Origin: Burkholderiales bacterium
GTDB lineage: Bacteria; Pseudomonadota; Gammaproteobacteria; Burkholderiales; SG8-41
Direction: 5' to 3'
NCBI GenBank assembly: GCA_035259205.1
Contig: DATFWO010000285.1
Span: 5,987 to 69,986, forward strand
DNA: 64,000 nucleotides
Made by a program: the position numbers and the translations under genes. This document shows, in pieces, positions 18,898 through 57,045 of this stretch. The notes beneath the pieces are model-generated. The model made no database searches and was not told the origin of the DNA. It worked only from the letters and a program-made list of their open reading frames with translations. The stretch's first letter is position 1; each line of letters begins with the position of its first letter.

Positions 18898-18986
18898 GCG
18901 CAGAACTGCTGGCTGATGCGCGCTGAACGGTGGACCGTGAGCAGTGAACAGTAAACAGTAAACACTAAACAGTGAGCAGTTCTGCG
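18898..18986. repeat. Eight tandem heptamers (GAACGGT GGACCGT GAGCAGT GAACAGT AAACAGT AAACACT AAACAGT GAGCAGT) bracketed by an 11-bp perfect inverted repeat
   Basis: Heptamers at 18925-18980 read directly. CGCAGAACTGC (18899-18909) is the exact reverse complement of GCAGTTCTGCG (18976-18986). Lies just 3' of the Bug gene stop (18999). Confidence 0.85.
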
Positions 18987-18998
18987 ACTCGTCGCCCC

Positions 18999-22219: not shown

Positions 22220-23869
22220 ATGCTTGAAGGCGTCGTCCCGTTTCCGCCTGAGTTCGCTCGCCGCTATCGCGAACGCGGCTATTGGGCGGGCCGTTCGCTC
22301 GCCCAGGAATTCGCAGTCGCCCTCGGAAGATTCGCCGACCGGGTGGCATTGATCGACCGCGACCGGGAATACACCTACCGCGACGTCGATCGGATGAGCG
22401 ATCGGCTGGCGCTCAACCTGCTGGAGCTGGGGCTGCGGCCGCTGGACCGGGTAGTCGTGCAGCTGCCCAATGTCGCGGAATTCGTGACGCTCTACGTGGC
22501 GCTGCAGAAGGCCGGCGCGATACCGGTCGCAGCGCTGGCGACGCACCGCTACAACGAGGTGAGCCAGTTCGTGCGCATCGCGTCGGCCGTTGCGTGCGCC
22601 TATCCCGAGGCGCAGGGGGATTTCCGGTTCGGGAGCATGATCCAGCGCATACAGGCGGAATCCGCCTCCTTGAGGTGGCGGTTCGTCCTCGGCAATGCCG
22701 GCGCGGGGGAGCGTTCGCTGGCGGAGTTGATCGAGCGCGAGCCTGCGCTGCCGCGCTCGATGCTCGAGAAGATCGTCATCGATCCGTCCGATCCCGCCGT
22801 GTTCCAGTTGTCGGGAGGAACGACGGGCATCCCCAAGCTCATACCGCGCACGCACAACGACTATGCCTACAACTCCAGGACCGCTGCGCCGGTCTGCGGC
22901 GTGACGGGGGATTCGATATTGCTGCTCGTGCTCCCCATCGCTCACAACCTCCCGCTCGCTTGTCCTGGCATCCAGGGCTATTTCTTCAGCGGTGGGAAGA
23001 TCGTGCTCAGCACGCACGCGCGCCCGGAGGAGATGCTCGGCCTGATCGAGAAGCACCGGGTCACGCACATCAAGCTGGTGCCGGCGCTGCTCATCCGGCT
23101 GATCGACAGTCCGGGCATCCGCAAGTTTGATCTGTCCAGCCTGAAGGTCATCCAATGCGGCGGGCAGCGCCTGCAGCCGGAAGTGCGCATGCGCGCGAAG
23201 CAGCTCATCCCGGGGGCCACGGTCCAGGAAAATTTCGGCATGGCCGAGGGCATGCTGTTTTTCGTCCGCCTGGACGATCCCGAGGACGTGCGGCTGGAGA
23301 CCTGCGGGCGACCGATCTCGCCCGACGACGAAGCAAGGCTCGTCGACGAGGAGGGCAGAGACGTAGCGGAGGGCGATGTAGGCGAGCTCGCGTGCCGGGG
23401 TCCGTACACGCTGCGCGGCTACTTCAACGCGCCCGAGCACAACGCCCGCGGGTTCACGCCGGATGGCTACTACCTCACCGGCGACCTGATGCGCCGGCAC
23501 CCTTCGGGCAACTACGTCGTGGAAGGGCGCAAGAAAGACCTGATCAACCGCGGTGGCGAGAAAATCAGCGCGGAAGAGATCGAGAACCTGATCCTCTCGC
23601 ATCCGGGCGTGCAGAACGTCGCCTGCGTGGCGCTGCCCGATGCGGTGCTGGGAGAGCGGATGTGCGCGTGCGTCATCCCGCGCATGGGCCATGCGCTGGA
23701 AATGAAGGAGCTTACCGAATTCCTCATGACCAAGGAGATCGCCAAGTTCAAGCTTCCCGAGCGGCTCGAGATCATGGATGATTTTCCGCTGTCGACTTTC
23801 GGCAAGGTCTCCAAGAAGGCTCTGGTGGCGATGGTAAGCGAACGGTCAACGGTGAACAGTAAACAGTGA
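22220..23869 (+). CDS. Aryl-acid adenylating enzyme, (2,3-dihydroxybenzoate/salicylate)-AMP ligase EntE/DhbE-like (ANL superfamily)
   Basis: Track ORF 22127-23869 trimmed to ATG 22220. 549 aa starting MLEGVVPFPPEFARRYRERGYWAG (the classic EntE-type N-terminus), with FQLSGGTTGIPKLIPRTHNDY (A3 core), GEKISAEEIE and a C-terminal K. Confidence 0.85.
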   Translation: MLEGVVPFPPEFARRYRERGYWAGRSLAQEFAVALGRFADRVALIDRDREYTYRDVDRMSDRLALNLLELGLRPLDRVVVQLPNVAEFVTLYVALQKAGAIPVAALATHRYNEVSQFVRIASAVACAYPEAQGDFRFGSMIQRIQAESASLRWRFVLGNAGAGERSLAELIEREPALPRSMLEKIVIDPSDPAVFQLSGGTTGIPKLIPRTHNDYAYNSRTAAPVCGVTGDSILLLVLPIAHNLPLACPGIQGYFFSGGKIVLSTHARPEEMLGLIEKHRVTHIKLVPALLIRLIDSPGIRKFDLSSLKVIQCGGQRLQPEVRMRAKQLIPGATVQENFGMAEGMLFFVRLDDPEDVRLETCGRPISPDDEARLVDEEGRDVAEGDVGELACRGPYTLRGYFNAPEHNARGFTPDGYYLTGDLMRRHPSGNYVVEGRKKDLINRGGEKISAEEIENLILSHPGVQNVACVALPDAVLGERMCACVIPRMGHALEMKELTEFLMTKEIAKFKLPERLEIMDDFPLSTFGKVSKKALVAMVSERSTVNSKQ

Positions 23870-23922
23870 ATTGTGGATTTGCTACCGTTCACCGCTCGCT
23901 AGGTTCTAATCACCGTTCACTC
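23833..23922. repeat. Heptamer array (GAACGGT CAACGGT GAACAGT AAACAGT GAATTGT) plus complementary arm (CCGTTCACC ... CACCGTTCACT)
   Basis: Read directly. The array encodes the last residues (...STVNSKQ) and the TGA stop (23867-23869) of the ligase. The right arm lies at 23881-23922. Confidence 0.8.
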
Positions 23923-27231: not shown

Positions 27232-28272
27232 ATGAACCCCCACAAGATCGACATCTTCAATCACGTGATGCCTGCGCGCTATCTCGAGCTGGTGCGGCAG
27301 CACTCCAAGGAACCCGGCATGGTGAGGCGCATGTCGAGCCTGCGCATGCTCTGGGATATCGAGGCGCGCGTCGCCATGCTGCGCGAGAAATTCGCCGACG
27401 TGCGGCAGGTGCTCACCCTGGCGTTGCCGCCGCCGGAGCTGTTGGGCGGCGCGGACGTGTCGCCCGAGTTTGCCCAGGTCGCTAACGACGGGATGGCGGA
27501 GATGTGCGCGAAATGGCCGCAGGAGTTCCCGGCGTTCGTCGCTTCGCTGCCGATGAACAATGTGCCGGCCGCGCTCGACGAGATGGACCGGGCGATCGGA
27601 AAACTGGGCGCGCGCGGGATCCAGATCTGCACCAGCGTCGGCGGGCGGCCCCTCGACGACCCCGAGTTCCTGCCGGTGCTGGAGCGCGTAACCAACTTCC
27701 ACGACCTTCCGCTCTGGATGCATCCGGTGCGGCCGGGGGCGCGGCCGGACTACCCGAACGAGCCGAGGTCGAAGTACGAGATCTGGCAGGTGCTCGGCTG
27801 GCCGTTCGAGACCAGCGTCGCGATGGCGCGCATCGTCTTCTCCGGGCTCTTCGACCGGCTGCCGCGGATGCGGATCATCACGCACCACTGCGGCGGCATG
27901 ATTCCCTATTTCGCCGGACGCGCAGAAACGCTGTGGGCGCAGCTTGGCTCGCGCAGCGCCGACGCGGAGGAGGCGGAAGTCCTCAAGCGCCTGACGAAGC
28001 CGCCGATCGAGTTTTTCAGGATGTTCTACGGGGACACGGTGCTCGGCGGGGCGGCTGCGCCGCTCGCATGCGGCCTCGCTTTTTTCGGCGCGGAGCACGT
28101 CGTATTCGCGAGCGACTGCCCGTTCGATCCGGAAGGCGGGCCCATGTTCATCCGCGAGGGGATACGCTCGATAGAGGACTTGAAGCTCTCCGAGCGGGAA
28201 AAGCGGAAGATCTATTTCGAGAACGCGCTGAAGCTGATGCGGCTCAAGAGCCCAGTGACCAGCGACCAGTGA
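27232..28272 (+). CDS. Amidohydrolase-2 family protein
   Basis: 346 aa. KIDIFNHVMP near the N-terminus, ...VVFASDCPFD near the C-terminus. Confidence 0.85.
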   Translation: MNPHKIDIFNHVMPARYLELVRQHSKEPGMVRRMSSLRMLWDIEARVAMLREKFADVRQVLTLALPPPELLGGADVSPEFAQVANDGMAEMCAKWPQEFPAFVASLPMNNVPAALDEMDRAIGKLGARGIQICTSVGGRPLDDPEFLPVLERVTNFHDLPLWMHPVRPGARPDYPNEPRSKYEIWQVLGWPFETSVAMARIVFSGLFDRLPRMRIITHHCGGMIPYFAGRAETLWAQLGSRSADAEEAEVLKRLTKPPIEFFRMFYGDTVLGGAAAPLACGLAFFGAEHVVFASDCPFDPEGGPMFIREGIRSIEDLKLSEREKRKIYFENALKLMRLKSPVTSDQ

Positions 28273-28287
28273 CCAAAGACCGGTGAG
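28253..28287. repeat. Five tandem heptamers CAGTGAC CAGCGAC CAGTGAC CAAAGAC CGGTGAG
   Basis: Read directly. Encodes the last residues (...PVTSDQ) and TGA stop (28270-28272) of the amidohydrolase. Its last unit provides the GAGG RBS of the next gene. Confidence 0.8.
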
Positions 28288-28297
28288 GCAACGCACG

Positions 28298-29785
28298 ATG
28301 GCTGCCCCAAACAGCGACAAATACCGCGATGAAGTAGGCGAGCTGATCGCCAATTATGTGGTGCGGGTTTCCGACAAGCTGGAGCCGCGCGCCGAACGCG
28401 GGGCGAAAGCCGTACTCATCGATTCGATTGCCGTTGCTGTAGCCGCGTTACGGCATCCTGCCGCGCAGAATGCGCGGCGGCATGCTTACCGCTTTCCGGC
28501 CAATGGACCCGGCTGCGTGATCTGGGGCACGCAGAAGCGCACGGAGCCCGAGTTGGCCGCTCTGACCAACGGCGTCCTGCTGAGATGCCACGACTACAAC
28601 GATTTCTTCGTCGGCCAGCGCAACAGCGGCCATTCGAGCGATATCATGGCCGGCGTGATAGCCGCCGCCGAATGGACCGATGCGCCCGGGAAGAAACTGC
28701 TGTCGGCGATCGCGATTGGCTACGAAATGGTGGGCGCGGCGTTCGATTCTTTCTCGACCGCGCCGGGCGGCTGGGACTATACCAACCTCTCGGCTCTGGG
28801 GGCGACTGCAGCCATCGCGAGGCTGCTGAAGCTCAATGCCGACCAGACCCGTGAGGCGATGGGGATGACGGTGGTTCCCCACTTCGCGAGCGACGAGATC
28901 GAATCGGGCGAGCTCAACCAGCGCGGCGACCTCTCGATGTGGAAGCGCTTCAACGGCGCGGACGCCGTGAGAAATTCACTCCAGGCCTGTCTCCTCGCGC
29001 AGGTGGGTGTGGAGGCGGCTGTCAGGCCGTTTGTCGGAAAGAACGGCTTCATTCAAAAGCTCGCCAACAAGGAAGATCCCGTCCCGGTGCTGCGCGAGCG
29101 GCTGAATCCGCGTATTCCCCTCGGCCGGGTGAACGACGCTTTCCTGAAGCGATGGCCGGTCGGCTCCCTCGCGCAAAGCGCGATCCAGGCCGCACTGGAG
29201 GCGCGGTCGCAGATCAAGGATCTTTCGCGGATCAAGCAGATACGCGTTTTCGCCGAAGAAGGAGCCTACGACCATCTGGTCAAGATCCGTCAGGATCCGT
29301 GGAATCCCATTTCGCGGGAGACCGCGGATCATTCGCTGCCTTATATCATCGCGGCGGCGGTGCTGGATGGATACATCCGGGTCGGGAGCTTCAATCCGAA
29401 GGTGGTCCTCGACCCGGCCCGTCAGGCGTTCATCAAAAAGGTAGTAGCGGAGCCTTCGCTCGAGCTCGGCTCGCACGCCATCGGCAAGCACAAGCGCGTG
29501 GAGATGGGCTACCTGTCTCGTGTCGAGATCGAGCTCGCGGACGGTGCAGTCGTGCGCGGCGAGGCGCGACCGTTCCCCGGGCACCACAGGAATCGTTTCT
29601 CCGATGCCGACCTCGAAGAGAAGCTGCGCGAAAACGTCGAGCCGATCGCCGGCGCGCAGCGTACGGCAAAATTAAAGTCGCTCTTGTGGTCGCTGGAAAA
29701 GGTCAAGGGCGCGCGTGAATTGACCAGGCTCCTGGCATTCGGCGGGAAGATCGATATCGACAGCGCCCGAGCTCGCGAGCGCTGA
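28298..29785 (+). CDS. MmgE/PrpD-family protein
   Basis: Track ORF 28283 (GTG) trimmed to ATG 28298. 495 aa. ...AKAVLIDSIAVAVAALRHP... and overall length are typical of the MmgE/PrpD family. Confidence 0.85.
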   Translation: MAAPNSDKYRDEVGELIANYVVRVSDKLEPRAERGAKAVLIDSIAVAVAALRHPAAQNARRHAYRFPANGPGCVIWGTQKRTEPELAALTNGVLLRCHDYNDFFVGQRNSGHSSDIMAGVIAAAEWTDAPGKKLLSAIAIGYEMVGAAFDSFSTAPGGWDYTNLSALGATAAIARLLKLNADQTREAMGMTVVPHFASDEIESGELNQRGDLSMWKRFNGADAVRNSLQACLLAQVGVEAAVRPFVGKNGFIQKLANKEDPVPVLRERLNPRIPLGRVNDAFLKRWPVGSLAQSAIQAALEARSQIKDLSRIKQIRVFAEEGAYDHLVKIRQDPWNPISRETADHSLPYIIAAAVLDGYIRVGSFNPKVVLDPARQAFIKKVVAEPSLELGSHAIGKHKRVEMGYLSRVEIELADGAVVRGEARPFPGHHRNRFSDADLEEKLRENVEPIAGAQRTAKLKSLLWSLEKVKGARELTRLLAFGGKIDIDSARARER

Positions 29786-29800
29786 ATGAAATCATTTTGA

Positions 29801-29853
29801 CCGCAGATACACGCAGATCAACGCGAGGGATGGTAAGCGGTAAACTGATCAGG
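29801..29853. repeat. Hybrid short-period array: CCGCAGATACACGCAGATCAACGCGA followed by GGTAAGC GGTAAAC TGATCAG GTGAACC
   Basis: Read directly, between the PrpD-like stop and the Rieske gene start. The first part matches one arm of the 10988-11101 element. Confidence 0.6.
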
Positions 29854-29860
29854 TGAACCC

Positions 29861-31141
29861 ATGATGAATGAGGAAACCAACACACTGCTCACCCGCACCG
29901 GCCCCGGCACGCCGATGGGTGAATTGTTCAGGCGCTACTGGATACCGGCGCTGCTCGACTGGGAACTGCCCGAGCGGGATTGCGCTCCCGTGCGCGTGAA
30001 GCTCCTGGGAGAACGGCTGATCGCCTTTCGCGATTCGGAGGGCCGGATCGGGTTGATCGACGAGTTCTGCGCCCATCGCGGCGTCTCGCTGTGGTTCGGG
30101 CGCAACGAGGAATGCGGACTGCGTTGTCCGTACCACGGTTGGAAGTATGACGTGACCGGGCAATGCGTGGACCTGCCTTCGGAGGCCGAAGAAACGGGCA
30201 TGCGTGCGCGCATCAAGCTCAAGTCCTACGCTTGCGCGGAGGTGGGCGGCGTCATCTGGGCCTACATGGGCCCGCCGGCGGAGAAGCCGCCACTGCCGGG
30301 ATTCGAGTGGGTTCAACTGCCCCCGTCGCACCGCGTCGTCACCAAGCGCTGGCAGGAAAGCAATTACTTGCAGGCGGTCGAAGGCGGCATCGATTCGAGT
30401 CATGTGTCTTTCCTGCACCGGGGCGACATGGCCAGCGATCCGTTTCACAAGAACACCGGCGGCGCGAGGATGGTGAAAGCCACCAAGACCACATTCGACA
30501 TCGTCGACTCTCCCGGCGGCATGTTGATCGGCGCGCGGCGCGACGCGGAACCCGGCAAGCACTACTGGCGCATCACGCAATTCATCATGCCCTGGTATAC
30601 GCTGATCCCGCCCTATGCAAACAACGCCCTCAACGGCCATGCGTGGGTGCCCATGGACGACGAGAACTGCGTGGCATGGTCCATGACGTTCCATCCCACG
30701 GCGCCCATATCCGAGAAGGACGTCGAGCTGCTCAAGGACGGCAACGGGGTTCACGCCACCCTGATACCCGGCACCTTCCGTCCTCTGGCGAACCGCACCA
30801 ACGACTACCTGATCGACCGCGCCAAGCAGAAGAGCGGGCGCCATTACAACGGGGTCAGGGGCCTTGCCATGCAGGATGCATCGGTGCAGGAGAGCATCGG
30901 GCCCATCGCGGATCGGCGCACGGAGAACCTCGTCTCGACCGATAACGCGATCATCATGGCGCGCCAGCGGCTGATCAAGGCCGCGCAGGCGGTGCAGGAC
31001 GGCGGCCGCGCCCCGGGACTGGAGCCGGGCGACCAGCTCATACGGTCGGCCTCTCTTGTCCTGCCGGCGGACGCCGACTTCAGGCGACATGCGCTGGACG
31101 CGGTGAAGTACCGCAAGGGCGAGCCGCACGTGGCCGTCTGA
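29861..31141 (+). CDS. Rieske [2Fe-2S] non-haem-iron oxygenase, alpha subunit (phthalate/vanillate-type, no beta subunit)
   Basis: 426 aa. Rieske motif CAHRGVSLWFG...CPYHGWKYD. The catalytic domain carries H..SH / D motifs (DSSHVSFLH). Confidence 0.85.
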   Translation: MMNEETNTLLTRTGPGTPMGELFRRYWIPALLDWELPERDCAPVRVKLLGERLIAFRDSEGRIGLIDEFCAHRGVSLWFGRNEECGLRCPYHGWKYDVTGQCVDLPSEAEETGMRARIKLKSYACAEVGGVIWAYMGPPAEKPPLPGFEWVQLPPSHRVVTKRWQESNYLQAVEGGIDSSHVSFLHRGDMASDPFHKNTGGARMVKATKTTFDIVDSPGGMLIGARRDAEPGKHYWRITQFIMPWYTLIPPYANNALNGHAWVPMDDENCVAWSMTFHPTAPISEKDVELLKDGNGVHATLIPGTFRPLANRTNDYLIDRAKQKSGRHYNGVRGLAMQDASVQESIGPIADRRTENLVSTDNAIIMARQRLIKAAQAVQDGGRAPGLEPGDQLIRSASLVLPADADFRRHALDAVKYRKGEPHVAV

Positions 31142-31146
31142 CGACG

Positions 31147-31292
31147 GCAAATCCCAAATCCCAAACTCCGAATCCCAAACCCCAAATCCCAAATTTCAAA
31201 CGCGGGCGCTTGCCATTTGATGCTTGGAATTTGTCTGCTATGTGGTGCTTGGAATTTGTTTGTTATTTGGTTTTTGTTGCTTGTAGCTTGCT
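31147..31292. repeat. Eight tandem heptamers (GCAAATC CCAAATC CCAAACT CCGAATC CCAAACC CCAAATC CCAAATT TCAAACG) followed by a complementary T/G-rich 7-nt-period arm (..TTGGAATTTGT..TTATTTGGTTTTTGTTGCTTG)
   Basis: Read directly. A markedly AT-richer island starting 6 nt after the Rieske gene stop and ending 17 nt before the Bug gene start. Confidence 0.85.
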
Positions 31293-40657: not shown

Positions 40658-41272
40658 TCAAGCGGGTTCCTTGACCCTGCGCTCCAGATAGCGCCTGACG
40701 AGCTCCCCGGTGAGCACGACCTTGGCATCGTATTCGGGCGCGTCCTCGATCTGCTCGAGGTCATTCAGCCCGCTGAGGCGGTAGATGCGATTGATCGCGG
40801 AAATCAACCGTACCGGGCGCTCCGGATCGGCGTTGAAGTGCTGATGGATGGTGTTGGGGGGGATGTAGATCAGGTCGCCGGCTTCCCATTCGTAGCGCTT
40901 GATCTCGTCCTGCGCCTTCCAGTGATAGGTGTCGGTGATCTCGACGTCGCAATCCTGGTGCAGGTCGTAGCCGCGGCCCTCCAGCACGTAGAGGCACTCC
41001 TCGGCCAGATGCCGGTGCTTGCCGGAGCGGCTGCCGGGAGGGATGGCCTGCATGTAGGCATCCACGGTATCCATGCGCGTATTCATCTGCTCGTTCAGCA
41101 GATGCTTGAGCAGCCCCTGCCGGGACATTTCCCACGGCATTTCTTCGGGGTGCACGATCTTCTTGCGCTTGGCGTTCCGCATGGGGGCGCCGCTGGCGTC
41201 GTCGAGGAGATCCTGATAGAGCTTGCCACTCAACTTGCCGCGCATCCATGCCCTTGATTCATCCCAGGCCAT
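40658..41272 (-). CDS. Monocupin metalloprotein (cupin-2 type)
   Basis: 204 aa. Cupin motif 1 GSRSGKHRHLAEECLYVLEG and motif 2 GDLIYIPPNTIHQHFN. Confidence 0.8.
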   Translation of the reverse strand: MAWDESRAWMRGKLSGKLYQDLLDDASGAPMRNAKRKKIVHPEEMPWEMSRQGLLKHLLNEQMNTRMDTVDAYMQAIPPGSRSGKHRHLAEECLYVLEGRGYDLHQDCDVEITDTYHWKAQDEIKRYEWEAGDLIYIPPNTIHQHFNADPERPVRLISAINRIYRLSGLNDLEQIEDAPEYDAKVVLTGELVRRYLERRVKEPA

Positions 41273-41287
41273 CTGAGTTCTCCTTCA

Positions 41288-41375
41288 GCGTAAGCGATAA
41301 ACGGTGAGCCGTGAGCAGTCTACAGACAGCGGCGCTCCTGCTCTCACCATACACTGTCCACTATTAACTGTTTGT
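41288..41375. repeat. Heptamer-type inverted element (..TAAACGGTGAGCCGTGAGCAG.. / ..CTGCTCTCACCATACACTGTCCACTATTAACTGTTTG)
   Basis: Read directly. The right arm overlaps the stop (41364-41366) and last codons (...HSTNS) of the 186-aa cupin gene. Confidence 0.65.
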
Positions 41376-41924
41376 CGAGTGGTTGTAGTCGTCCTCGGCC
41401 TCTCTTGCCCGGAAGCCTTCGGCGCCGGGCGCAGGCTCCGTGGGACGGGCCTCGACCAGCTTCTGGAAAAGCATGTTCATGAACAGGTACATCGGCTTGC
41501 TCTTGAGCACCAGCGCTCGCGCGGGTTTGGCAGGATCGGCGTTGAAATGCTGGTGGACGCAGTTGCTGTGGACGACCGCAACGTCGCCGGCCTGCCAGTC
41601 GTAGCGTATCCCGTCGTGGATCTCGTAACCGCGGCCGTCGAGTATATAGAATGCGGCCTCGTTAACGTGCCCGTGTTTTTGCGACTTGCCGCCGGGACCG
41701 TATTCTTCAAGGTGTATATGCAACGTCTGGCCGAGTCCATCCTTGGGCTCGACGTAGTGGCGGCTGTAGCACTGGGGACCGTCGACGAACTTGATCTCCG
41801 TGCCCTTCCTCACCCGGGGTAGCGAGCGCAGTCGCTTCAGCTCCTCCCTGAGATTGTAGTGACCGGCGATCGCCCGTACGAATATCCGGTCCTTCTTGCT
41901 GTGATAGTGCGATTCGTTGCTCAT
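41364..41924 (-). CDS. Monocupin metalloprotein (cupin-2 type)
   Basis: 186 aa. GGKSQKHGHVNEAAFYILDG and GDVAVVHSNCVHQHFN. Shares the W-x-AGD...HQHFNADP signature with 40658-41272. Confidence 0.8.
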   Translation of the reverse strand: MSNESHYHSKKDRIFVRAIAGHYNLREELKRLRSLPRVRKGTEIKFVDGPQCYSRHYVEPKDGLGQTLHIHLEEYGPGGKSQKHGHVNEAAFYILDGRGYEIHDGIRYDWQAGDVAVVHSNCVHQHFNADPAKPARALVLKSKPMYLFMNMLFQKLVEARPTEPAPGAEGFRAREAEDDYNHSTNS

Positions 41925-41943: not shown

Positions 41944-43014
41944 CTACCTGGCCTGCTTGGTAATGATCTCAGAATATAGTTTATTCCATTTATCGTTCTC
42001 GTCGAGTACCAGCCTGGGGTCGACGAGCTTGAGCGGCATTTTGTGCACCGGGGTGCTGATCTTCCTGTTGGCGGGGGTGAAATCGCGCTTGAGGAGCAGC
42101 TCCTGCGCGTCGGTCAGCATGAAATCGTAGAACAGAATGGCCGCGTGCGGATGAGGCGCGTTGCGCGCGAGGCCTATGCCCTGAAAGCGTGCAATGATCG
42201 GCGGCAGGGCGAACCAGTCTATGGGCGCACCGTGGTTCTTCAGCTGCTCGGCCTTGTATTGATAGACCGTCAGCGCCAACGGTACCTCGCCCGACACCAC
42301 CAGATTGGTGAGCAGGGTATGGCCCTTGCGCACCGAGATGCCGTTGGTGCCGACGATATCGCGAAAGAGCTTCAGGCCTTTTGCTTCGCCCAGGTCGCTG
42401 ATGACTCCCGCAAACCAGTCGAGGTCGCTCGCCTCGATCCCGAGCCTGCCCTTCCACCTGGGATTCAGCAGGTCTTCGTAGCTCTTGGGAACCTCTTCCT
42501 TCTTGACGAGCTTGGTGTTGTAGGCGGCCACGAAAACGTTGAGCCGCGTGCCCACCCATTCCCGGTGCTGGGGTATGGCCTGCGGAATCAGATCGGCCAA
42601 GTGGGGCGACTTGACCTCCTGGAGGAGTTTCTCCCGGTACAGGGATTCCATTTCGGGCGTGTTGGTTTCGAAGATATCGGCTTCGTAGCGTCGGGCACGC
42701 TCCTCGGACACGCCCCGGCGCACGATGTTCTCGGAGCTCGCGCGCCAGACCTGGATCTTGAGGCCGTATTTCTTCTCGAACGCAGACGTCAGCACGAGCA
42801 TGTCGTCGGGCGGTGCAGACGAGTAGACGGTGAGCGTCGCTTCCTTGCGTGCCGCTTCGATCAGCCGCGGGGTCCGGTCGGGGCCCGTATAGGTTGCGAT
42901 ATCGGCGACGGTGGCTGCGGCCAGGGCCGGTGCGCTGAGCAACGTCCCCACCAATCCGAGCAGCGCGCATGCGCCGATTCCCAAACGGTCTGCGAAGGAA
43001 AGCGTACAGGGCAT
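41944..43014 (-). CDS. ABC transporter periplasmic substrate-binding protein (family-1, Fe(III)/polyamine/phosphonate-type)
   Basis: Track ORF trimmed to ATG 43014. 356 aa. Signal peptide ...LLSAPALAAA, LTVYSSAPPDDMLVLTSAFEKKYGLKIQVWR is typical of AfuA/PotD-like binding proteins. Confidence 0.8.
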   Translation of the reverse strand: MPCTLSFADRLGIGACALLGLVGTLLSAPALAAATVADIATYTGPDRTPRLIEAARKEATLTVYSSAPPDDMLVLTSAFEKKYGLKIQVWRASSENIVRRGVSEERARRYEADIFETNTPEMESLYREKLLQEVKSPHLADLIPQAIPQHREWVGTRLNVFVAAYNTKLVKKEEVPKSYEDLLNPRWKGRLGIEASDLDWFAGVISDLGEAKGLKLFRDIVGTNGISVRKGHTLLTNLVVSGEVPLALTVYQYKAEQLKNHGAPIDWFALPPIIARFQGIGLARNAPHPHAAILFYDFMLTDAQELLLKRDFTPANRKISTPVHKMPLKLVDPRLVLDENDKWNKLYSEIITKQAR

Positions 43015-43101
43015 CGTCGGGTCAGTCGTCGATCGTGGGCATCGAGCATGATAGCCGGAAAGCGATCGCACCCGGCGCGATCCAGGAAATGGCGGGGCGT
43101 T

Positions 43102-44199
43102 TCATGCGAGCTCCGCTTCGTATGCCGCGTCCATCCGCGATTTGAGTCCGTGCTTTGCGAGCGCCTCGGAGAACGTCTGGCGGATCACCGGCTTCTCGTC
43201 GGTGTAGTCGATCTGGTCGCCGCCGAGCCGGCGGCTGATCCAGGCCTTGGGCACGCCCTGTGCGTTGCGGATGGCTACCGATTCGTACTTGAACGCGAGG
43301 TAGCGCGCCGGCGTGGTCCCGGTGTTGAAGTGCTGGTGAAACCACATGTTGGGCGGAACGATCATGGTCCCGACCTGCCAGTCGTAGCGCCGCGGCTCGT
43401 CCCCCTCCGGCCACATGAGGGTGTAGCCCTCGCCCGAGAGCACGATCACGTGAGCGCCCGGACCGTGCGCGTGGGCCTTCTTGTACGTGCCGACCGGAAA
43501 CTGGGAGATGTGGCTGTTCATCGATCCCTTCGCCATGTTGAACCGGATGTGCCCGCCGCCGGCACCGCGTTCCTTGGCGCTGATCAGCGGCAGGTTGACC
43601 GCGTCCGCGACGAAATTCGTGTCGAGCAGCAGGCCCTTCTGCTCGCCCTTGCTGCTGAAGTACTCGGGCTCGCCGGAAAACCGGTTCTTGAAGTCGTAGC
43701 GCGTGTTGAACACGAACTCGATGTCGTCGAACTGGTTCATCACCACCGGCCCGTTGGTGACGGCTACGTAGCGCGCGGGCTCCCGTCCGGAGCCGTTGAA
43801 ATGCTGGTGCCAGGTGTTGAGCGGGATCGCAAACAGCGCGCCCGCCTTCCACTCGAAGGTAACGCGGTTCCCGGCATCGTTCCATACGGTCGTCGAGCCG
43901 CGCCCGGAAAGGATCAGGATCATTTCCTCGAACAGCTGGCGCTGCGGCGCGAGCTGGCCCCCGGCCGGAATTTCGCAGATATAACAATCGTTGGACGTGC
44001 GTGACGCCTCGTGATTGATGTATACGCCGCGCCCGCCGCGCCGCGCCCATGGCCGCAGCTCCACCGCATGCAGGTTCGGCACGTGGTGCGCGCCGATGAT
44101 CTCGAGGCCTTCGCTGCGCACCCAGCGGGTGTATGGCGTGTCCTTTTCGGTGGCGAACTTCTTGGCAAACTCCTCTGAAACGATTGCGCTTTGGCTCAT
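43102..44199 (-). CDS. Bicupin protein (two cupin-2-like barrels)
   Basis: Track ORF 43102-44307 trimmed to ATG 44199 (the upstream part translates the heptamer array). 365 aa. N-module ...PQRQLFEEMILILSGRG...GALFAIPLNTWHQHFN and C-module ...KAHAHGPGAHVIVLSGEG...GTMIVPPNMWFHQHFN. Confidence 0.8.
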   Translation of the reverse strand: MSQSAIVSEEFAKKFATEKDTPYTRWVRSEGLEIIGAHHVPNLHAVELRPWARRGGRGVYINHEASRTSNDCYICEIPAGGQLAPQRQLFEEMILILSGRGSTTVWNDAGNRVTFEWKAGALFAIPLNTWHQHFNGSGREPARYVAVTNGPVVMNQFDDIEFVFNTRYDFKNRFSGEPEYFSSKGEQKGLLLDTNFVADAVNLPLISAKERGAGGGHIRFNMAKGSMNSHISQFPVGTYKKAHAHGPGAHVIVLSGEGYTLMWPEGDEPRRYDWQVGTMIVPPNMWFHQHFNTGTTPARYLAFKYESVAIRNAQGVPKAWISRRLGGDQIDYTDEKPVIRQTFSEALAKHGLKSRMDAAYEAELA

Positions 44200-44214
44200 A
44201 GCCTGCTCCGCTGA

Positions 44215-44330
44215 ATAAACAGTGAACGGTGAACAGTGAACGGTAGCGAGTAAACAGTAAATAGTGAACAGTAGATAGAAGTTGAACTGCTGGTCTTTCC
44301 CGTTCATCGTTCACTGTTCACGATTCACTG
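44215..44330. repeat. Ten tandem heptamers (ATAAACA GTGAACG GTGAACA GTGAACG GTAGCGA GTAAACA GTAAATA GTGAACA GTAGATA GAAGTTG) plus complementary arm CCGTTCA TCGTTCA CTGTTCA CGATTCA CTG, a long hairpin
   Basis: Read directly. The reverse complement of 44300-44330 (CAGTGAATCGTGAACAGTGAACGATGAACGG) matches 44220-44243 (CAGTGAACGGTGAACAGTGAACGG) apart from a 1-nt indel and mismatch. The right arm contains the ABC ATPase stop codon (44325-44327). Confidence 0.85.
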
Positions 44331-45428
44331 CCTCAGGGCCACGCACTTCTCCGGGTTCATGCGAGCGTAGATCTTCTCACCAACGGGGGTCCTGAGCGAG
44401 GGGTGGGCGCGCGCAAGCAGGACGCGCTCCCCGAGGCCGACCTGAAAATCGACGTGCTCGCCGAGGAATACCTTGGCACGGACGACGCCCGTGCGGACGT
44501 TGTCGGCATTGCGACTGTCAGGGACCTGCTCGGATAGCTCGATGTCCTCCGGTCGAACCGACAGGACGACGGTGTCGCCCGCATTCAGGATTTCCGCCGA
44601 ATTCGCCTCGAGCTCGCCGAGCTCCGTGACCACGCGGCACGCGCCATCCCGCCCCTCGACGGAAACGACCTGCGCATCGATGAAATTCGTGGAGCCGACG
44701 AAGTCGGCCACGAAGCGGTTGCGCGGCTGCTCGTAGATCTCGCGCGGCGTGCCGACCTGGATCAGCTCGCCCTCGCTCATCACGGCAATCTGGTGCGAGA
44801 GCGCCAGCGCCTCGCTCTGGTCGTGGGTGACGTACACGGTGGTATGCCCGAACTCCTGCTGCAGGCGCTTCAGCTCGAAGCGCATGCGCTCGCGCAGCTT
44901 CGCATCGAGGTTGGACAGCGGCTCGTCGAGCAGGAGCAGCCGCGGCTCCCGCACCAGCGCCCGCGCGAGCGCGAGGCGCTGCTGCTGGCCGCCGGAGAGC
45001 TTCGTTGCGTCGCGCTCCGCCAGATCATCGAGGCCGACGGCGGCGAGAACGCGCATGACCTTGTCCCGGATCTCTTTCCTGTCGTGCCCGCCTGCGACCT
45101 CGAGCGGGAACGCTGCATTTTCGAAGACGTTCATGTGCGGCCAGATCGCATACGACTGGAAGACCATGCCGAAGTTGCGCTTGTTTGGAGCGATGAACGT
45201 ATTGGTCGCGGACGAGTAGACGACGGCGCCGTGGACCGAAATTTCTCCGGAGGTCGGGCGTTCGAGGCCGGCGATGGAGCGCAGGGTGGTCGTCTTGCCG
45301 CAGCCGCTGGGACCGAGCAGGGTAAACCACTTGCCCGTCGGCACCTCGAAGGTAACATCGCGTGCGGCTCGGACGGTTGCGCCGTGCACACCCGGATACT
45401 CCGTGCAGAGCGCAGTTACCTTCAGCAT
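44325..45428 (-). CDS. ABC transporter ATP-binding protein (PotA/FbpC/MalK-like with C-terminal TOBE-type domain)
   Basis: Track ORF trimmed to ATG 45428. 367 aa. Walker A GPSGCGKTT, signature LSGGQQQR, Walker B LLLLDEP, H-loop VTHD. Confidence 0.9.
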   Translation of the reverse strand: MLKVTALCTEYPGVHGATVRAARDVTFEVPTGKWFTLLGPSGCGKTTTLRSIAGLERPTSGEISVHGAVVYSSATNTFIAPNKRNFGMVFQSYAIWPHMNVFENAAFPLEVAGGHDRKEIRDKVMRVLAAVGLDDLAERDATKLSGGQQQRLALARALVREPRLLLLDEPLSNLDAKLRERMRFELKRLQQEFGHTTVYVTHDQSEALALSHQIAVMSEGELIQVGTPREIYEQPRNRFVADFVGSTNFIDAQVVSVEGRDGACRVVTELGELEANSAEILNAGDTVVLSVRPEDIELSEQVPDSRNADNVRTGVVRAKVFLGEHVDFQVGLGERVLLARAHPSLRTPVGEKIYARMNPEKCVALRQ

Positions 45429-45527
45429 GTGCACGCCCCCGGAATGCTGCGGGTCCAAGAAGCGCCGCGGTGCAATACGCCGACGCTCCGGAACGAACGC
45501 CGCAGCGCTTGTCCATATTTGCTGAAG

Positions 45528-47282
45528 TCAGCTTCGCCCGTTGCGAGTTTTCTCATGATCGTGATGATAATGGCCATGCTCGTGATTCTGATCATGGTCG
45601 TGATGATGGGGATGATCGTGAGAATGCCCATGAGGATGATGGTGAGCATGACCATCGTGCGGATGCTCGTGCGGCAGTCGCGGGTCCGCCTTGAATACCA
45701 GGGATTTCACCGTGACCGGCACCGTTTGCGACGGCATCCGGATGCGGCCGAGGTCGACGTAGTCGAAATCCCAGAGCGTCACCCCGTCGATCACCAGGAT
45801 GTCGCTTTCGACTTTCATTTCTTCGCGCAGGATGGCGCCCAGGTTCTGGGCGATGTCGCCGTCGAGCACGATGAAGAGCGGCTTGCGCTGGGCGATCGTG
45901 TGCGCGAATCCCCGCGCAATGCCTGCGGCGAAGGCCGCGATCCTCTCGTAGGAGGGGGATCCGCGCCAGCGCAGCGCGATCGCCACCTCGGTTTCGCCTT
46001 CGACCAAATCGAAGGCGGTGTGATGGTCGCGGATCGCGCCCGCGAGCTGGTCCACGTCGATCCGGTCCGTGCAGTGGTAGGCCGGCTGCAGCACCTGGAG
46101 ATTCCTGCGTGGCAGCAGGATGCCCGGGTCGGAGATATAGATGGTGTTGCCCGAGAGCTGCACGCTGTACTCCGATGCGCCCAGCGCGGTCGCGCGTATG
46201 CACTCGCCGGGTGGGAGGAGTGGCCAGGGCAGGGCGCCGCCGTCGAGCTTGCGCCGCAGCGCTAGGCCGAGGAGGCGTCCCATGTCGCCGAAATCGCGCG
46301 TCTCCCGCTGATACAGGTATTCGGCGACGCCCCCCGAAAACATGACGCCGGCTATGCCCTCCAGATCCGGAAGGGGATCGGTCAGGTACAGACGTTCCAG
46401 AACCGGGGGCAGCGGCCGGGCAGTGATGCAGCCGAGCAAGGCGTCCGCCATGCCGTCCGCGACACGCGCCATTGCTTCCGGCGGCGCGACATCGCCGCGG
46501 CTCCAACGGTAACCGGCTTGCGCCGCAAGGTGGCGTCCGGCGGGGTCGAGCCGCACGATGCGCTGATTCGCGTTTACTACCTGCAAGCGCCCTCCGATGT
46601 GTATCGCAGCCGTTGCGGTTACCCGCCCGTTCTCGATCACTGCGAGCTTCGTGGTGCCGCCTCCGATGTCGATATTGAGCAGGCGTTGCCCCGCCTCGTG
46701 GGATGCCGCCGCGGCGCCGGAGCCGTAGGCGGCGAGCGTGGCCTCCATATGATGCCCCGCGGTCGCGCACACGAACTCCCCGCCCTGATCGGCCAGCAGG
46801 CCGGCGATGGTTTCTGCGTTCTCGCGCCGCAGTGCCTCGCCCGTCAGGATCACCACGCCCGCGTCGACATTGTCCGGATGCAGTCCGGCCTGCTCGTACG
46901 CGGTGTCGATGATGGCGCCCAGTCCCGCCTCGTCGATGCGCTCCTCGCTCTGGTACGGCGTAAGAGAGACCGGCGACTCGAACAACGTTTCCCGCGAGAC
47001 CACGAAATAGCGGCTGGAAAGGTCTTCCGCGAGCCGCCGCAGATTCAACCTCGAGAAGATGACCTGCGTGCCGGCGGATCCGATATCGATGCCTACGCTG
47101 ACCAGGGTAACGTGATCCTGCAGCCACAGCGGGTCCTCTTCGGCGGAGCCTGCGCCGTCGAAGTGATCGTGGTCGTGATCCGCGGCTTCGTCGCCGTCGT
47201 GCGTATGGTCGTAGTCTTCCCCGTAGCGGTGGTCCTCGAGCGTATGAGGCCGCCGCCGGGTCGCGTCGTTATTGTCTTCCAT
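45528..47282 (-). CDS. EutA-family (ethanolamine ammonia-lyase reactivase-like) ASKHA ATPase with His-rich N- and C-terminal extensions
   Basis: 584 aa. The core is colinear with my recollection of E. coli EutA (SVGIDIGSAGTQVIFSRL, LLNIDIGGGTTKLAV, terminal VPVTVKSLVF). Extra residues 1-56 and the last 52 are His/Asp-rich. Confidence 0.8.
   Translation of the reverse strand: MEDNNDATRRRPHTLEDHRYGEDYDHTHDGDEAADHDHDHFDGAGSAEEDPLWLQDHVTLVSVGIDIGSAGTQVIFSRLNLRRLAEDLSSRYFVVSRETLFESPVSLTPYQSEERIDEAGLGAIIDTAYEQAGLHPDNVDAGVVILTGEALRRENAETIAGLLADQGGEFVCATAGHHMEATLAAYGSGAAAASHEAGQRLLNIDIGGGTTKLAVIENGRVTATAAIHIGGRLQVVNANQRIVRLDPAGRHLAAQAGYRWSRGDVAPPEAMARVADGMADALLGCITARPLPPVLERLYLTDPLPDLEGIAGVMFSGGVAEYLYQRETRDFGDMGRLLGLALRRKLDGGALPWPLLPPGECIRATALGASEYSVQLSGNTIYISDPGILLPRRNLQVLQPAYHCTDRIDVDQLAGAIRDHHTAFDLVEGETEVAIALRWRGSPSYERIAAFAAGIARGFAHTIAQRKPLFIVLDGDIAQNLGAILREEMKVESDILVIDGVTLWDFDYVDLGRIRMPSQTVPVTVKSLVFKADPRLPHEHPHDGHAHHHPHGHSHDHPHHHDHDQNHEHGHYHHDHEKTRNGRS
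45531..45686 (-). other. His-rich C-terminal tail of the EutA-like protein (21 His in 52 residues)
   Basis: DPRLPHEHPHDGHAHHHPHGHSHDHPHHHDHDQNHEHGHYHHDHEKTRNGRS, counted by hand. Begins where canonical EutA ends. Confidence 0.85.
47133..47282 (-). other. Acidic, His-rich N-terminal extension of the EutA-like protein
   Basis: MEDNNDATRRRPHTLEDHRYGEDYDHTHDGDEAADHDHDHFDGAGSAEED: 7 His and 18 Asp/Glu in the first 50 residues (hand count). Confidence 0.85.
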
Positions 47283-52962: not shown

Positions 52963-53103
52963 CGCGTCGCGGATACTGCGTCCCAGATATAGCGTCCCAG
53001 ATGAAGCGTGCCAAGCACGTAGAATCTGAGACGACCCATCTGAGACGTAGTATCTGAGACGCTTCACCTGAGACGCCTACCTGGGACGTATTACCGCAGA
53101 CGA
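52963..53103. repeat. Inverted pair of 14-nt-period arrays: 4 x GCGTCCCAGAT-type units, then 6 x ATCTGAGACG-type units
   Basis: GCGTC/GCGTG start at 52964/52978/52992/53006. CTGAGAC-type units start at 53026/53040/53054/53068/53081/53095 (indexed by hand). Lies 3' of the Bug gene. Confidence 0.85.
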
Positions 53104-55291: not shown

Positions 55292-57016
55292 ATGGCTCGC
55301 AAGCTCTCAGCAGCCAGCCGCAAAGCACGGGCTGCGCCGCTCAAGGTTTCTTCAACCGTCCGTCGCGCGACGAAGCGTGCCGCGCGCGGTTATGCGGATT
55401 TGCACGAGCACCTCGAGGCGCTGCGCCGGCGCGGGCTGCTGTTTACCGTAGAGCGTCCCATAGACAAGGACGCGGAGCTCCATCCGCTGGTACGCTGGCA
55501 ATTCGTAGGCGGTATCGAGGAACACGAGCGCAAGGCCTTCCTCTTCACCAACGTTACCGATGGCCGTGGCCGCCGGTACCGCTTTCCCGTCGCGGTCGGG
55601 GCGTTCGCGGGCAACCGCGCGATCTACGGTGTCGGCATGCGTGCGCCGCTCGGCGAAATACAGGAGCGGTGGGATCGCGCGATAGCCAATCCGATTCCGC
55701 CCCGCGTCGTCAGGAAAGCACGCTGCCAGGAGGTCGTGATCGAAGGCGCGGCGCTCAAAGGGGAAGGCAATGGCCTCGACATGCTGCCGATTCCGATCTC
55801 GACGCCCGGATTCGACGGCGCGCCTACCCTCACCGCGACCAACGTCATCACCAGAGATCCGGAATCCGGCGTGCAGAACCACGGCACCTACCGCGCCGGG
55901 CTCAAGGCACCGGACCGGCTGGTCGTCCGCATGTCCACGCGCACCGGCGGTGCGGGTGGCTATCGTCACTACCTGAAGCACCAGCGGCGCGGGGACAAGA
56001 CGATGCCGTGCGCGATTGCGCTCGGCTGTCCACCCTGTGTCGCCTTCGTCGCGCCGATGAGGCTGCCGCTCGACCTCGACGAGGTGACGGTCGCGGGAAG
56101 CATCGCGGGAGCGCCGATCAATGTCGTGCGCGCCCGGACGGTCGACCTGCTGGTGCCGGCCGAGGCCGAGATCGTGATCGAGGGCTTGATCGATACCGAA
56201 TACCTGGAACCCGAAGGGCCGTTCGGGGAATCGCACGGGCACGTTGCGCTCGAGGAATTCAACATGCCGATGCGGGTGACGGCGATTACGCACCGGCGCG
56301 ATGCCATCGTCGCCTCCTACATCAGCCAGGTGACGCCGAGCGAGTCGAGCGCGATCAAGCGCGTCGCGTACGAGCCGTTGTTTCTGTCCCACCTTAGAAC
56401 AGTGCTCGGCATACGCGGCGTGCGCCGCGTCACGTTGCACGAGCGCCTGACTAACCTGCGCCGCGTCGTGCTGGTAACGATCGAGAAGGGTACCCCGCGT
56501 ACCGAAATCTGGCGCGCGCTCTACGGCGCGACCTCGTTCATGGCCGATATCGGCAAGATCTGCATCGCGGTAAACGACGACATCGATCCCGAGAGCGCCG
56601 ACGCGATTCTCTGGGCTCTCGCTCTGCGCATGAATCCCGCGCGAGACCTTCAGGTGCTGCCCTATCGCAGCCTGGGCCACGGGCCGGAACGCGAGCACGG
56701 AGCGAGCAGTGACCGAACTGACGCCACGCTGCTTATGGACGCGACCATGAAGGAAGAGCTGCCCCCGCTCGCGTTACCGAAGCGAGAGTACATGGAGCGT
56801 GCGCGGAAGTTGTGGGAGGAGCTGGGGCTGCCGAAGCTGCGGCCGCAGTCCCCCTGGTACGGCGAGCCCGTGGGCGACTGGCTGCCGCAGTGGGACGAGG
56901 GTGCGAAGCGCGCTGTCGAAGGCGGCTACCTCGAGAACGGCCGCATCAGCGAGAAACTGAGGCGCAAGGGCCTCAAGCCTGAAACGCGCTTCAGGCCCAA
57001 AACCAGTGACCGGTGA
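55292..57016 (+). CDS. ubiD: UbiD-family (prFMN-dependent) reversible decarboxylase
   Basis: 574 aa from ATG 55292 (the track start is TTG 55268). YADLHEHLEALRRRGLLFTVERPIDKDAELHPLVRWQF is the typical UbiD N-terminus, preceded by a ~33-aa basic extension. No SD seen. Confidence 0.8.
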   Translation: MARKLSAASRKARAAPLKVSSTVRRATKRAARGYADLHEHLEALRRRGLLFTVERPIDKDAELHPLVRWQFVGGIEEHERKAFLFTNVTDGRGRRYRFPVAVGAFAGNRAIYGVGMRAPLGEIQERWDRAIANPIPPRVVRKARCQEVVIEGAALKGEGNGLDMLPIPISTPGFDGAPTLTATNVITRDPESGVQNHGTYRAGLKAPDRLVVRMSTRTGGAGGYRHYLKHQRRGDKTMPCAIALGCPPCVAFVAPMRLPLDLDEVTVAGSIAGAPINVVRARTVDLLVPAEAEIVIEGLIDTEYLEPEGPFGESHGHVALEEFNMPMRVTAITHRRDAIVASYISQVTPSESSAIKRVAYEPLFLSHLRTVLGIRGVRRVTLHERLTNLRRVVLVTIEKGTPRTEIWRALYGATSFMADIGKICIAVNDDIDPESADAILWALALRMNPARDLQVLPYRSLGHGPEREHGASSDRTDATLLMDATMKEELPPLALPKREYMERARKLWEELGLPKLRPQSPWYGEPVGDWLPQWDEGAKRAVEGGYLENGRISEKLRRKGLKPETRFRPKTSDR

Positions 57017-57045
57017 GCAGTCAGCAGCAACCGGCGAGCAGTAAC
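57004..57045. repeat. Six tandem heptamers CAGTGAC CGGTGAG CAGTCAG CAGCAAC CGGCGAG CAGTAAC
   Basis: Read directly. Encodes the last UbiD codons and the TGA stop (57014-57016). Confidence 0.8.

Follow-up and report, generated by a model that had tools for sequence, protein, structure and literature searches.

What kind of element is the long hairpin of degenerate 7-nt units that separates two genes of a soil Burkholderiales bacterium, and how did it come to stand exactly between the stop codon of one gene and the ribosome-binding site of the next? The question is raised by positions 44215–44330 of a 64,000-nt stretch of DNA (contig C285, 5987–69986; hereafter the window), where GTGAACA/GTAAACA-type heptamers fill the spacer between an ABC-transporter ATPase gene and a bicupin gene. 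An earlier note, made from the letters alone, had picked this hairpin out as the exemplar of a pervasive class of intergenic repeats. The source is a metagenome-assembled genome (G000) of an uncultured soil Burkholderiales, 6.55 Mb in 414 contigs with 64% GC; the bin is fragmented, 94% complete, and has an estimated contamination of 4.9%. Gene models come from our own caller based on open reading frames (ORFs), which gave 6208 genes and 87.5% coding DNA, and are approximate. We find that the exemplar contains no gene and belongs to a lineage-specific population of heptamer simple sequence repeat (SSR) arrays.

Anatomy and Predicted Fold of the Hairpin

The hairpin is described here on the transcribed (minus) strand; coordinates are given in Table 1. 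The ATPase ORF ends ...CAG TGA, and its stop codon (44325–44327) is the TGA of the first heptamer, AGTGAAT. All four units of this sense arm hold a TGA, so that stops are present in all three frames. Beyond a non-repeat center, in which we found no ORF and no similarity to other loci, lies the antisense arm, which is stop-free in every frame and ends 6 nt before the GGAG Shine-Dalgarno (SD) sequence of the bicupin gene. The best inverted repeat joins the two outer stem halves (23 nt, 91% complementary) with 65 nt between the arms, and Tandem Repeats Finder (TRF) calls period 7/14 at 44216–44278 and 44309–44330. The earlier account of tandem heptamers followed by complementary ones, with closely paired outer parts, is thus correct, at about nine plus four units.

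The predicted fold of the transcribed strand has a free energy of −51.8 kcal/mol, compared with −34.6 ± 3.5 kcal/mol for 200 dinucleotide shuffles (z = −4.99); none of the 200 folded as well. The opposite strand gave z = −3.9. In the predicted minimum free energy (MFE) structure the base of the helix has an internal loop of 7 nt, which contains the GGAG. No Rfam 15 covariance model reached its gathering score in the window, and none scored at E ≤ 1 in 44100–44450. A promoter and terminator scan of 43000–46000 found no promoter-like or terminator-like site at the hairpin, and no direct duplication flanks the exemplar arms in the sequence. The exemplar loop (center ~21–65 nt, no ORF) contains no ORF of the PF05635 family, to which we return below, and no PF05635 match was found on the window's contig.

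The open frame of the bicupin gene (43102–44307) reaches 36 codons upstream of the true ATG (402 versus 365 aa); it is overextended because antisense arms are stop-free. Bicupin open frames of relatives are likewise inflated, to 373–423 aa.

Heptamer Arrays Form a Genome-wide Intergenic Class

TRF detected 1014 period-7 and 526 period-14 arrays in the 6.55 Mb, compared with 136–437 for periods 8, 10, 11, and 13. The arrays occupy about 600 loci and cover 227 canonical units, of which GGGATGA is the commonest at period 7 (96 arrays). The modal copy number of period-7 arrays is four units. Arrays are concentrated outside genes: the non-coding share of array bases is 78% for period 7, 88% for period 14, and 96% for period 28, when 12.5% would be expected. 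Per kb of spacer, there are 1.22 array-bearing spacers between co-directional genes and 1.42 between convergent genes, but only 0.43 between divergent ones. Arrays are therefore not equally frequent within genes or in 5′ regions. An autocorrelation analysis that does not depend on TRF gave a lag-7/14 signal in the 42 nt after stop codons, a weaker one before starts, and none in mid-gene.

The units are diverse but not random. The consensus near stops is TGA-N-S-R-G, with 66% purine. TGA serves as the unit stop in 91% of units but makes up only 57% of gene stops. The commonest of these units, TGAGGGA, occurs 36 times against ~5 expected from position-wise frequencies. Between neighboring arrays, units agree to within one mismatch in 19.7% of pairs, compared with 12.0% of random pairs (permutation p < 0.001); this tendency of unit families to cluster locally is modest though significant, and part of it may come from heterogeneity of the metagenome bin. 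G tracts are not a general property: 743 of the 1014 period-7 arrays (73%) lack GGG/CCC, yet their mode is still four units, and four units (~28 nt) are the modal arm length even without G tracts.

Apart from the arrays, the spacers have little in common. When arrays were masked and the spacers compared all against all by BLAST, 554 of 652 array-bearing spacers (85%) shared no non-array sequence with any other, and only a few unrelated repeat families appeared. The Y1/RAYT transposase family PF01797, detected in 6 of 14 control genomes, was not found in G000. The proposal of a pervasive intergenic class whose unit drifts, and which is not a mobile element of fixed sequence, agrees with these data. 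The same note had called the arrays AT-richer than their surroundings. Against coding flanks this is so for about six of the eight arrays listed there (two marginal, one not lower), but not genome-wide against other intergenic DNA, where GC is 59.3% in arrays and 59.7% elsewhere.

Arrays Are Polar and Anchored on Stop Codons

Arrays that start at most 10 nt from a gene's stop carry a stop codon per unit in the sense orientation in 244 of 294 cases (83%), and 27 are antisense. Near starts the orientation is reversed: 142 of 219 arrays ending at most 25 nt from a start codon are antisense (complementary, TCA type). Arrays for which no partner was detected show the polarity as well, at 178:18 close to stops and 94:15 close to starts. 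In addition, 144 of the 244 sense arrays keep their unit TGA in register with the gene stop, where 1/7 would be expected. For 110 genes the stop falls inside an in-register array of three or more units; it belongs to the first unit in 80 of them, to the second in 16, and to the third in 14, whereas random overlap would give 1:1:1. A period of 7 does not divide by 3, so three units provide a stop in each frame. In inverted pairs, the stop-bearing arm comes first in 63 of 68 stop-bearing pairs and second in 5. This order is identical when read from either strand, so the stop-bearing arm faces a gene from either side.

We considered two other causes of the polarity and rejected both. Replication strand does not account for it: whichever replication strand an array lies on, its polarity tracks the coding strand (86:6 and 56:4). 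An artifact of ORF calling is rejected since no more than 105 of 763 arrays fall within called genes, with few antisense ones at C termini, and also because the unit distribution is 80:16:14 instead of even. The earlier statement that every array sits at the 3′ end of a gene therefore stands as a strong tendency and not as a rule; arrays also occur near starts, and the window array at 18925–18980 is antisense to the gene that it adjoins.

Paired Arrays Fold into Stop-to-Start Stem-Loops

Among co-directional spacers, a fold with z < −3 was found in 35% of those with arrays and in 6% of those without; helices of 22 or more pairs occurred in 37% and 15%, respectively. For array spacers whose helix has at least 18 pairs (245 spacers), the median distance from the first base of the stop codon to the helix is 6 nt, and the median distance from the end of the helix to the next start is 19 nt. 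The array hairpin loop has a median of 25 nt, and subtraction of the hairpin leaves a spacer of 29 nt in the median. A run of at least 5 T in the following 8 nt was seen behind only 3% of array hairpins. We conclude that array hairpins are stop-to-start intercistronic stem-loops and not canonical terminators. The complementary second arm, described earlier as often present, does make hairpins of some arrays, but about half are single-armed.

If base pairing were maintained base by base, it left no trace in three measures. For 53 informative inverted pairs, complementarity of the units in their real order (13.5) did not differ from that in permuted order (13.1, p = 0.17), that is, the unit order is not mirrored, as inverted duplication of a whole arm or compensatory upkeep would lead one to expect. 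The lengths of paired arms are not correlated (r = −0.06). Among mismatches on the transcribed strand of 70 strong co-directional array hairpins, G-U is no commoner than A-C (98 versus 112, p = 0.37), whereas non-array hairpins lean to G-U (37 versus 23). Since both arms are arrays of complementary units, any register pairs. There is thus no sign of selection on base pairing, and the suggestion that selection acts on structure found no support.

Arrays Turn Over Rapidly at Orthologous Spacers

The comparison of orthologous spacers rests on five spacers in relatives that are uncultured soil or groundwater Burkholderiales/Betaproteobacteria of the same genus. In the contigs fetched from seven relatives, synteny with the window is confined to 40.6–47.3 kb (the cupin/ABC/EutA cluster). 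The spacer between the ABC-ATPase and bicupin genes, which holds the exemplar in G000, has no array in G003 and G013. In G006 it has GTGATTC ×3 and no second arm, in G012 a GTGAATC/GTGATTC hairpin followed by T6, and in G009 a TAAGGCA/AAAGGCA (GGCAAAA) hairpin that begins at the TAA stop of its gene. The two cupin genes (window 40658–41924) overlap or abut in four relatives (GTGAgccATG, 0–2 nt) and are 33 nt apart in G018, while G000 has a 91-nt array spacer there that carries its own GAAGGAG ribosome-binding site. Between the bicupin gene and the gene for the solute-binding protein (SBP), G003 has GGGATGA ×4, G009 GGCAAAA, G012 GATTCAC-type units, G018 an 8-mer array (GTGATGAA)×5, and G000 none. 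One genome thus re-uses the same unit family in adjacent spacers, and orthologous spacers differ between genomes. Arrays are gained, lost, and replaced at fixed sites between species, and turnover is fast; this gain, loss, and change of unit fits the slippage mechanism that the earlier note had offered.

Two of the relatives also illustrate what three-frame stops do for a gene. In G012 (L008 2790–2850) and G006 (L009 1395–1425), where the position of the ancestral TGA is one base out of frame, the ATPase ORF crosses two units before it ends in the third. The stops that the array offers in all frames thus rescue termination of the ATPase after five extra residues.

Several further features of these spacers were noted. 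A conserved motif of ~16 nt, TTGGAGTAAATTTTCG (variants TTAGAGTAGATTCTGCG), lies ~35–45 nt upstream of the bicupin start in six relatives (contigs L002, L003, L004, L006, L008, and L009) and may be an operator, promoter, or leader element; it is absent from the window at 44200–44215, where the antisense heptamer arm extends toward the ribosome-binding site. The cupin–cupin spacer of G012 holds GGGGGAGGGGG-type palindromes at a junction that is 0–2 nt long elsewhere. G018 (L007 1270–1410) has two direct repeats of ~55 nt holding CCCCTCCTC...GAGGAGGGG. In G003, G018, and G009, TTTGCCT-type heptamers enter the region aligned as the N terminus of the SBP gene; their translation would be hydrophobic, and they may contribute to signal-peptide coding or mark a mis-set start.

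Arrays Are Lineage Specific and Co-occur with PF05635 Genes

A search with the pattern (TGA-N4)×4, whose counts detect only TGA- or AGT-bearing units, gave 3–978 matches per genome in 24 other genomes of the genus, with tens or more in 22 of them, and 0–30 matches in 16 genomes from families elsewhere in the order. Among 300 genomes sampled evenly across the class, some 20 scattered lineages were rich in the pattern, and most had none.

G000 encodes seven PF05635 genes (four-helix-bundle proteins, 23S-IVS/Avd-like, where IVS is intervening sequence). Six of these lie in the loop between inverted tandem arrays, and the arrays around the six belong to the same unit families as gene-less arrays. 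Within the genus, array matches correlate with PF05635 copy number (rho 0.74, n = 25). With array-rich defined as at least 50 period-7 matches, we tested the association over 299 genomes of about 220 families: PF05635 was present in 20 of 22 array-rich genomes and in 30 of 277 others (odds ratio [OR] 82, p = 1e-15). The control family PF01797 was also enriched in array-rich genomes (OR 12, p = 0.002), which implies that part of the PF05635 signal is general richness in accessory DNA. PF01797 is too common (67%) for a neutral control and was used for stratification; among PF01797-positive genomes the PF05635 association held (OR 126, p = 3e-14). Four genomes of the genus (G001, G003, G005, and G011) have 27–171 array matches and no PF05635 gene, so the gene is not needed to keep arrays.

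Relation to Described Heptamer Repeats

The earlier note knew of no repeat family with this organization. That was mistaken, because stop-biased, strand-biased, convergent heptamer SSRs have been published. The closest are the heptamer arrays of Xanthomonas (GGGAATC) and Nostoc PCC 7120 (GGGGAYT), which were read as G-quadruplex formers and left without a function (Rehm et al., 2015, PMC4692102). Xanthomonas has 70–75 convergent pairs per genome that are capable of forming stem-loops (PMC4692102). An excess of heptamers among long bacterial SSRs, reported in 2007, and tandem heptanucleotides of Calothrix PCC 7601 are cited in the same article (PMC4692102). Like the Xanthomonas and Nostoc arrays, ours are 7-nt tandems in excess in non-coding DNA, scarce between divergent ORFs, with a mode of four units; they lie on the coding strand at most 50 bp from a stop or over it, and on the opposite strand upstream of starts; they form convergent pairs; and their length and sequence vary widely between close species. 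The exemplar accordingly shares the tandem 7-mers, the non-coding bias, the polarity, and the convergent pairing, but its unit (GTGAACA) has no G tract. Unlike Xanthomonas with its one G-tract family, G000 has dozens of families with a TGA core. First-unit stop anchoring and the link to PF05635 were found here and are not reported in PMC4692102.

Direct repeats of TAACTGA are known from marine Beggiatoaceae, cyanobacteria, and Bacteroidetes, and their stops in all three frames have already been pointed out (MacGregor, 2015, PMC4679880). As in our arrays, these repeats are intergenic, overlap only the last bases of ORFs, and are patchy and lineage specific. That study concerned a single unit, mostly in direct repeats lying forward just upstream of starts, with one inverted set; here, in contrast, the arrays after stops are in sense, those before starts are antisense, and inverted pairs are frequent. 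Geobacter metallireducens has paired sites composed of MTYCTGA ×5, GTTGCTYN ×4, and GGACCGG ×4 (Aklujkar et al., 2009, PMC2700814). These resemble our arrays in having several families per genome, 4–5 units, opposite-strand pairs at variable distance, and one CTGA unit; they were interpreted as binding sites of the global regulators IHF/HU, and stop anchoring was not analyzed there (PMC2700814).

A fourth relative is the 23S rRNA IVS of Coxiella burnetii (Leptospira and Salmonella have such IVSs too). Its near-perfect 28-bp stem is cut by RNase III in vitro, contains tandem GACAGAT heptamers whose copy number varies by strain, and encloses a PF05635 (S23p) ORF in the loop (Warrier et al., 2016, PMC4990558). 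The exemplar likewise has a long, near-perfect heptamer stem, and a PF05635 ORF fills the loop in six of the seven G000 cassettes. Unlike the Coxiella IVS, which is located in rRNA helix 45, the exemplar lies between protein genes, its loop has no ORF, and its cleavage is only putative. The kind of repeat is therefore already known; different here are the many TGA-core families, the G-tract-free four-unit mode, and the measured first-unit anchoring.

Other Arrays in the Window

All seven further loci that had been listed from the sequence are genuine period-7 arrays adjoining the 3′ end of a gene (antisense at 18925–18980, the exception to the polarity described above); those at 15224, 29827, 41288, and 57004 are degenerate and fall under the TRF threshold. 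A folding advantage over shuffles holds for four arrays in the window, namely 44215–44330 (z −5.0), 52964–53088 (z −7.4), 23833–23922 (z −2.2), and 31148–31271 (z −2.1), but the arrays at 41288–41375, 18925–18980, and 57004–57045 fold no better than shuffles. No hairpin of the window is stronger than that at 52964–53088 (−64.3 kcal/mol); its 14-mer family recurs on contig C391, in the arms that flank a PF05635 gene.

The units at 31148–31271 are stop-free on both strands and depart from the TGA-core rule. The 400 nt at 18596–18998 have no gene call and may be the remnant of a lost gene; a 36-aa ORF on the plus strand ends on the first unit of the 18925–18980 array. At 45601–45655, a 12/24-nt coding repeat encodes the His-rich tail of the EutA-like gene 45528–47282.

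Table 1. Coordinates of the Exemplar Hairpin, Its Flanking Genes, and the Other Arrays of the Window
Feature	Position	Strand	Remark
ABC-transporter ATPase gene (ABC_tran + TOBE_2)	44325–45434	−	Upstream in transcription
Sense arm, four units: AGTGAAT CGTGAAC AGTGAAC GATGAAC	44300–44330	−	Units as on the transcribed strand
Hairpin center, non-repeat, ~21 nt	44279–44299	−	
Antisense arm, about nine units of CTGTTCA/CTGTTTA type	44215–44278	−	Units as on the transcribed strand
Outer stem half	44220–44242	.	Pairs with 44308–44330; inverted-repeat search and MFE structure
Partner stem half of 44220–44242	44308–44330	.	Inverted-repeat search
GGAG Shine-Dalgarno of the bicupin gene	44206–44209	−	6 nt before ATG (GGAG-N6-ATG)
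Bicupin gene (Cupin_2 twice), downstream cistron	43102–44199	−	ATG 44197–44199
GTGAGCN/GTAAACN array with degenerate complementary arm, between two cupin genes	41288–41375	−	Unit family of the exemplar
Sense array over the stop of gene 22220–23869, with complementary arm	23833–23922	+	
Single array of eight units	18925–18980	+	19 nt past the stop of gene 18999–19979 (−)
Degenerate GGTAAGC/AGTAACC sense array, convergent spacer	15224–15257	+	7 nt after the stop of gene 13568–15217
(CAGTGAC/CAGCGAC) ×5 sense array	28253–28287	+	Holds the stop of gene 27232–28272; fills the 25-nt spacer
Short sense array GGTAAGC GGTAAAC TGATCAG GTGAACC	29827–29853	+	Between genes 28298–29785 and 29861–31141
Degenerate sense array CAGTGAC CGGTGAG CAGTCAG ...	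57004–57045	+	Spans the stop of gene 55400–57016; no second arm
14-mer (GCGTCCCAGATNNN) array and inverted array	52964–53088	+	
(CAAATCC)n array with complementary GGAATTTG-type arm	31148–31271	+	After the stop of gene 29861–31141

Origin and Possible Role of the Arrays

How, then, did the hairpin arise between these two genes? Starting from the observed anatomy, class statistics, polarity, anchoring, turnover, and lineage specificity of the arrays, and from the absence of terminator, repetitive extragenic palindrome (REP), miniature inverted-repeat transposable element (MITE), and G-quadruplex features, we lean on balance toward arrays that are made by slippage, copied within the genome, and seeded at stops, with selection acting as a filter and with transcripts that form a duplex of the RNase III type. 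Arrays would arise, lengthen, and shorten by replication slippage of 7-nt units. Slippage in situ cannot explain the shared unit families, so copying or homogenization between arrays is needed as well; new loci may be seeded at TGA stops by copying or gene conversion from existing arrays, with no transposon of fixed sequence. Persistence would then be filtered by what genes tolerate: arrays could stay after stops, but not between divergent promoters or in coding sequence. In the transcript of the ABC-ATPase/bicupin operon, the arms would pair over at least 23 bp, in a duplex that reaches from the stop codon to the ribosome-binding site. Most probably this would lead to RNase III-type cleavage or 3′-end protection, uncoupling the mRNA fates of the two cistrons; an RNase III (rnc) gene is encoded in G000, and the analogy is drawn because the heptamer-built stem of the Coxiella 23S IVS has been cut experimentally. 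Because pairing shows no sign of purifying selection, we take any such effect on RNA to be a by-product, or a function under weak selection, and not the reason why arrays exist.

Several points weigh against this explanation. The RNase III or stability effect is argued by analogy, and the duplex cannot explain the whole class, as about half of the arrays have no partner arm. Slippage alone explains neither the few dominant unit families nor the exact starts at stop codons, and no enzyme has been identified for the proposed copying between arrays. The strong polarity of unpaired TCA-type arrays before starts hints at a constraint at the level of RNA or translation that a purely neutral model does not predict; distances to start codons come from our own ORF caller and are approximate.

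As a selected regulatory RNA hairpin, the element would be maintained as an intercistronic stabilizer, a processing site, or a device of translational coupling, comparable to REP/BIME (bacterial interspersed mosaic element) hairpins or RNase III sites, and would bring stop codon and ribosome-binding site together at the base of the helix. Much in the geometry would suit it. The helix spans from the stop codon to just before the SD; without it the spacer has a typical operon length (median 29 nt); the exemplar and array spacers fold far better than shuffles; an overlapping 0–2 nt junction was replaced by an array complete with a new SD; and the modal arm is four units (~28 nt) even where G tracts are missing. 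We nevertheless hold this to be possible but rather unlikely, since G-U is in no excess over A-C, unit order is not mirrored, arm lengths are uncorrelated, orthologous spacers are often free of arrays, and about half of the arrays are single-armed. Terminators without a U tract, one of the roles first suggested for the hairpins, are improbable, and so are attenuators of that kind. Stable hairpins directly after stops, enriched in convergent spacers, and the run of TTTTTT behind the orthologous G012 hairpin would fit them, but a T tract of at least 5 in the next 8 nt follows only 3%, the exemplar has no terminator-like site, loops of ~25–65 nt are atypical, and most helices lie inside co-directional pairs with the next SD and start a median of 19 nt past the stem. 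The G-quadruplex explanation given for Xanthomonas GGGAATC draws on the commonest unit, GGGATGA (96 arrays), and on the modal copy number of four; with no G tract in GTGAACA, and with the same four-unit mode in the 743 of 1014 arrays that lack GGG/CCC, we see very little chance for it here.

REP/BIME (REPIN) elements of enterobacteria and pseudomonads are extragenic palindromes at gene 3′ ends and between cistrons, where they can shield the mRNA upstream against 3′ exonucleases; the sequence of REPs is conserved, and RAYT (Y1) transposases move them. As intercistronic and 3′-end palindromes, the arrays would work alike, and their dispersed, palindromic, intergenic occurrence, with few dominant unit families, might also suggest a REP/REPIN or MITE with heptamer arrays as terminal repeats. 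Unlike REPs, however, the arrays have no conserved sequence, and the genome, 94% complete, has no Y1/RAYT transposase. A mobile element of fixed sequence is hardly tenable, as 554 of 652 array spacers share no non-array sequence that could be a conserved core, and arm lengths vary independently. Both REP/REPIN and MITE were rejected, with no conserved palindrome or core, no PF01797 match, and no flanking duplication.

The remaining candidate is compatible with the slippage-and-copying explanation and does not exclude it. The arrays would be binding sites or products of PF05635 (23S-rRNA-IVS/Avd-like) proteins, which would recognize, protect, or help to generate them, and the exemplar would be an "empty" relative of IVS-like cassettes. 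The six of seven G000 genes in loops between inverted arrays of the same families, the correlation in the genus (rho 0.74, n = 25), and the association across the class (20/22 versus 30/277, p = 1e-15), which holds among PF01797-positive genomes (p = 3e-14), all point this way. We still consider it unlikely. The evidence is correlation only, and cause could run either way; the control PF01797 is enriched too (OR 12); G001, G003, G005, and G011 have arrays without the gene; the gene could simply lodge in pre-existing hairpins; and we know of no biochemical function of the PF05635 protein. Arrays and PF05635 genes could even be parts of one widespread genetic system, although our expectation of this is low. 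On that tentative reading, gene-less hairpins would be its abundant "empty" form, and the protein would bind, protect, or propagate arrays that are copied onto TGA stops and whose stems need no register.

Significance

Since 1990, heptamer repeats have been reported from cyanobacteria, Xanthomonas, Geobacter, and Beggiatoa, with no agreement on how they arise or what they do. G000 is unusually rich, with many unit families at hundreds of loci, which makes quantitative statements possible. The four-unit preference persists without G tracts, and this weakens the G-quadruplex explanation proposed for Xanthomonas. For annotators, the arrays are worth recognizing, because they extend ORF calls past true starts and break metagenome assemblies. 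The association with PF05635 supplies a concrete, testable candidate partner. If arrays and PF05635 genes did belong to one system, the heptamer repeats known from cyanobacteria as short tandemly repeated repetitive (STRR) sequences, those of Xanthomonas and Beggiatoa, and the orphan IVS family would share an explanation.

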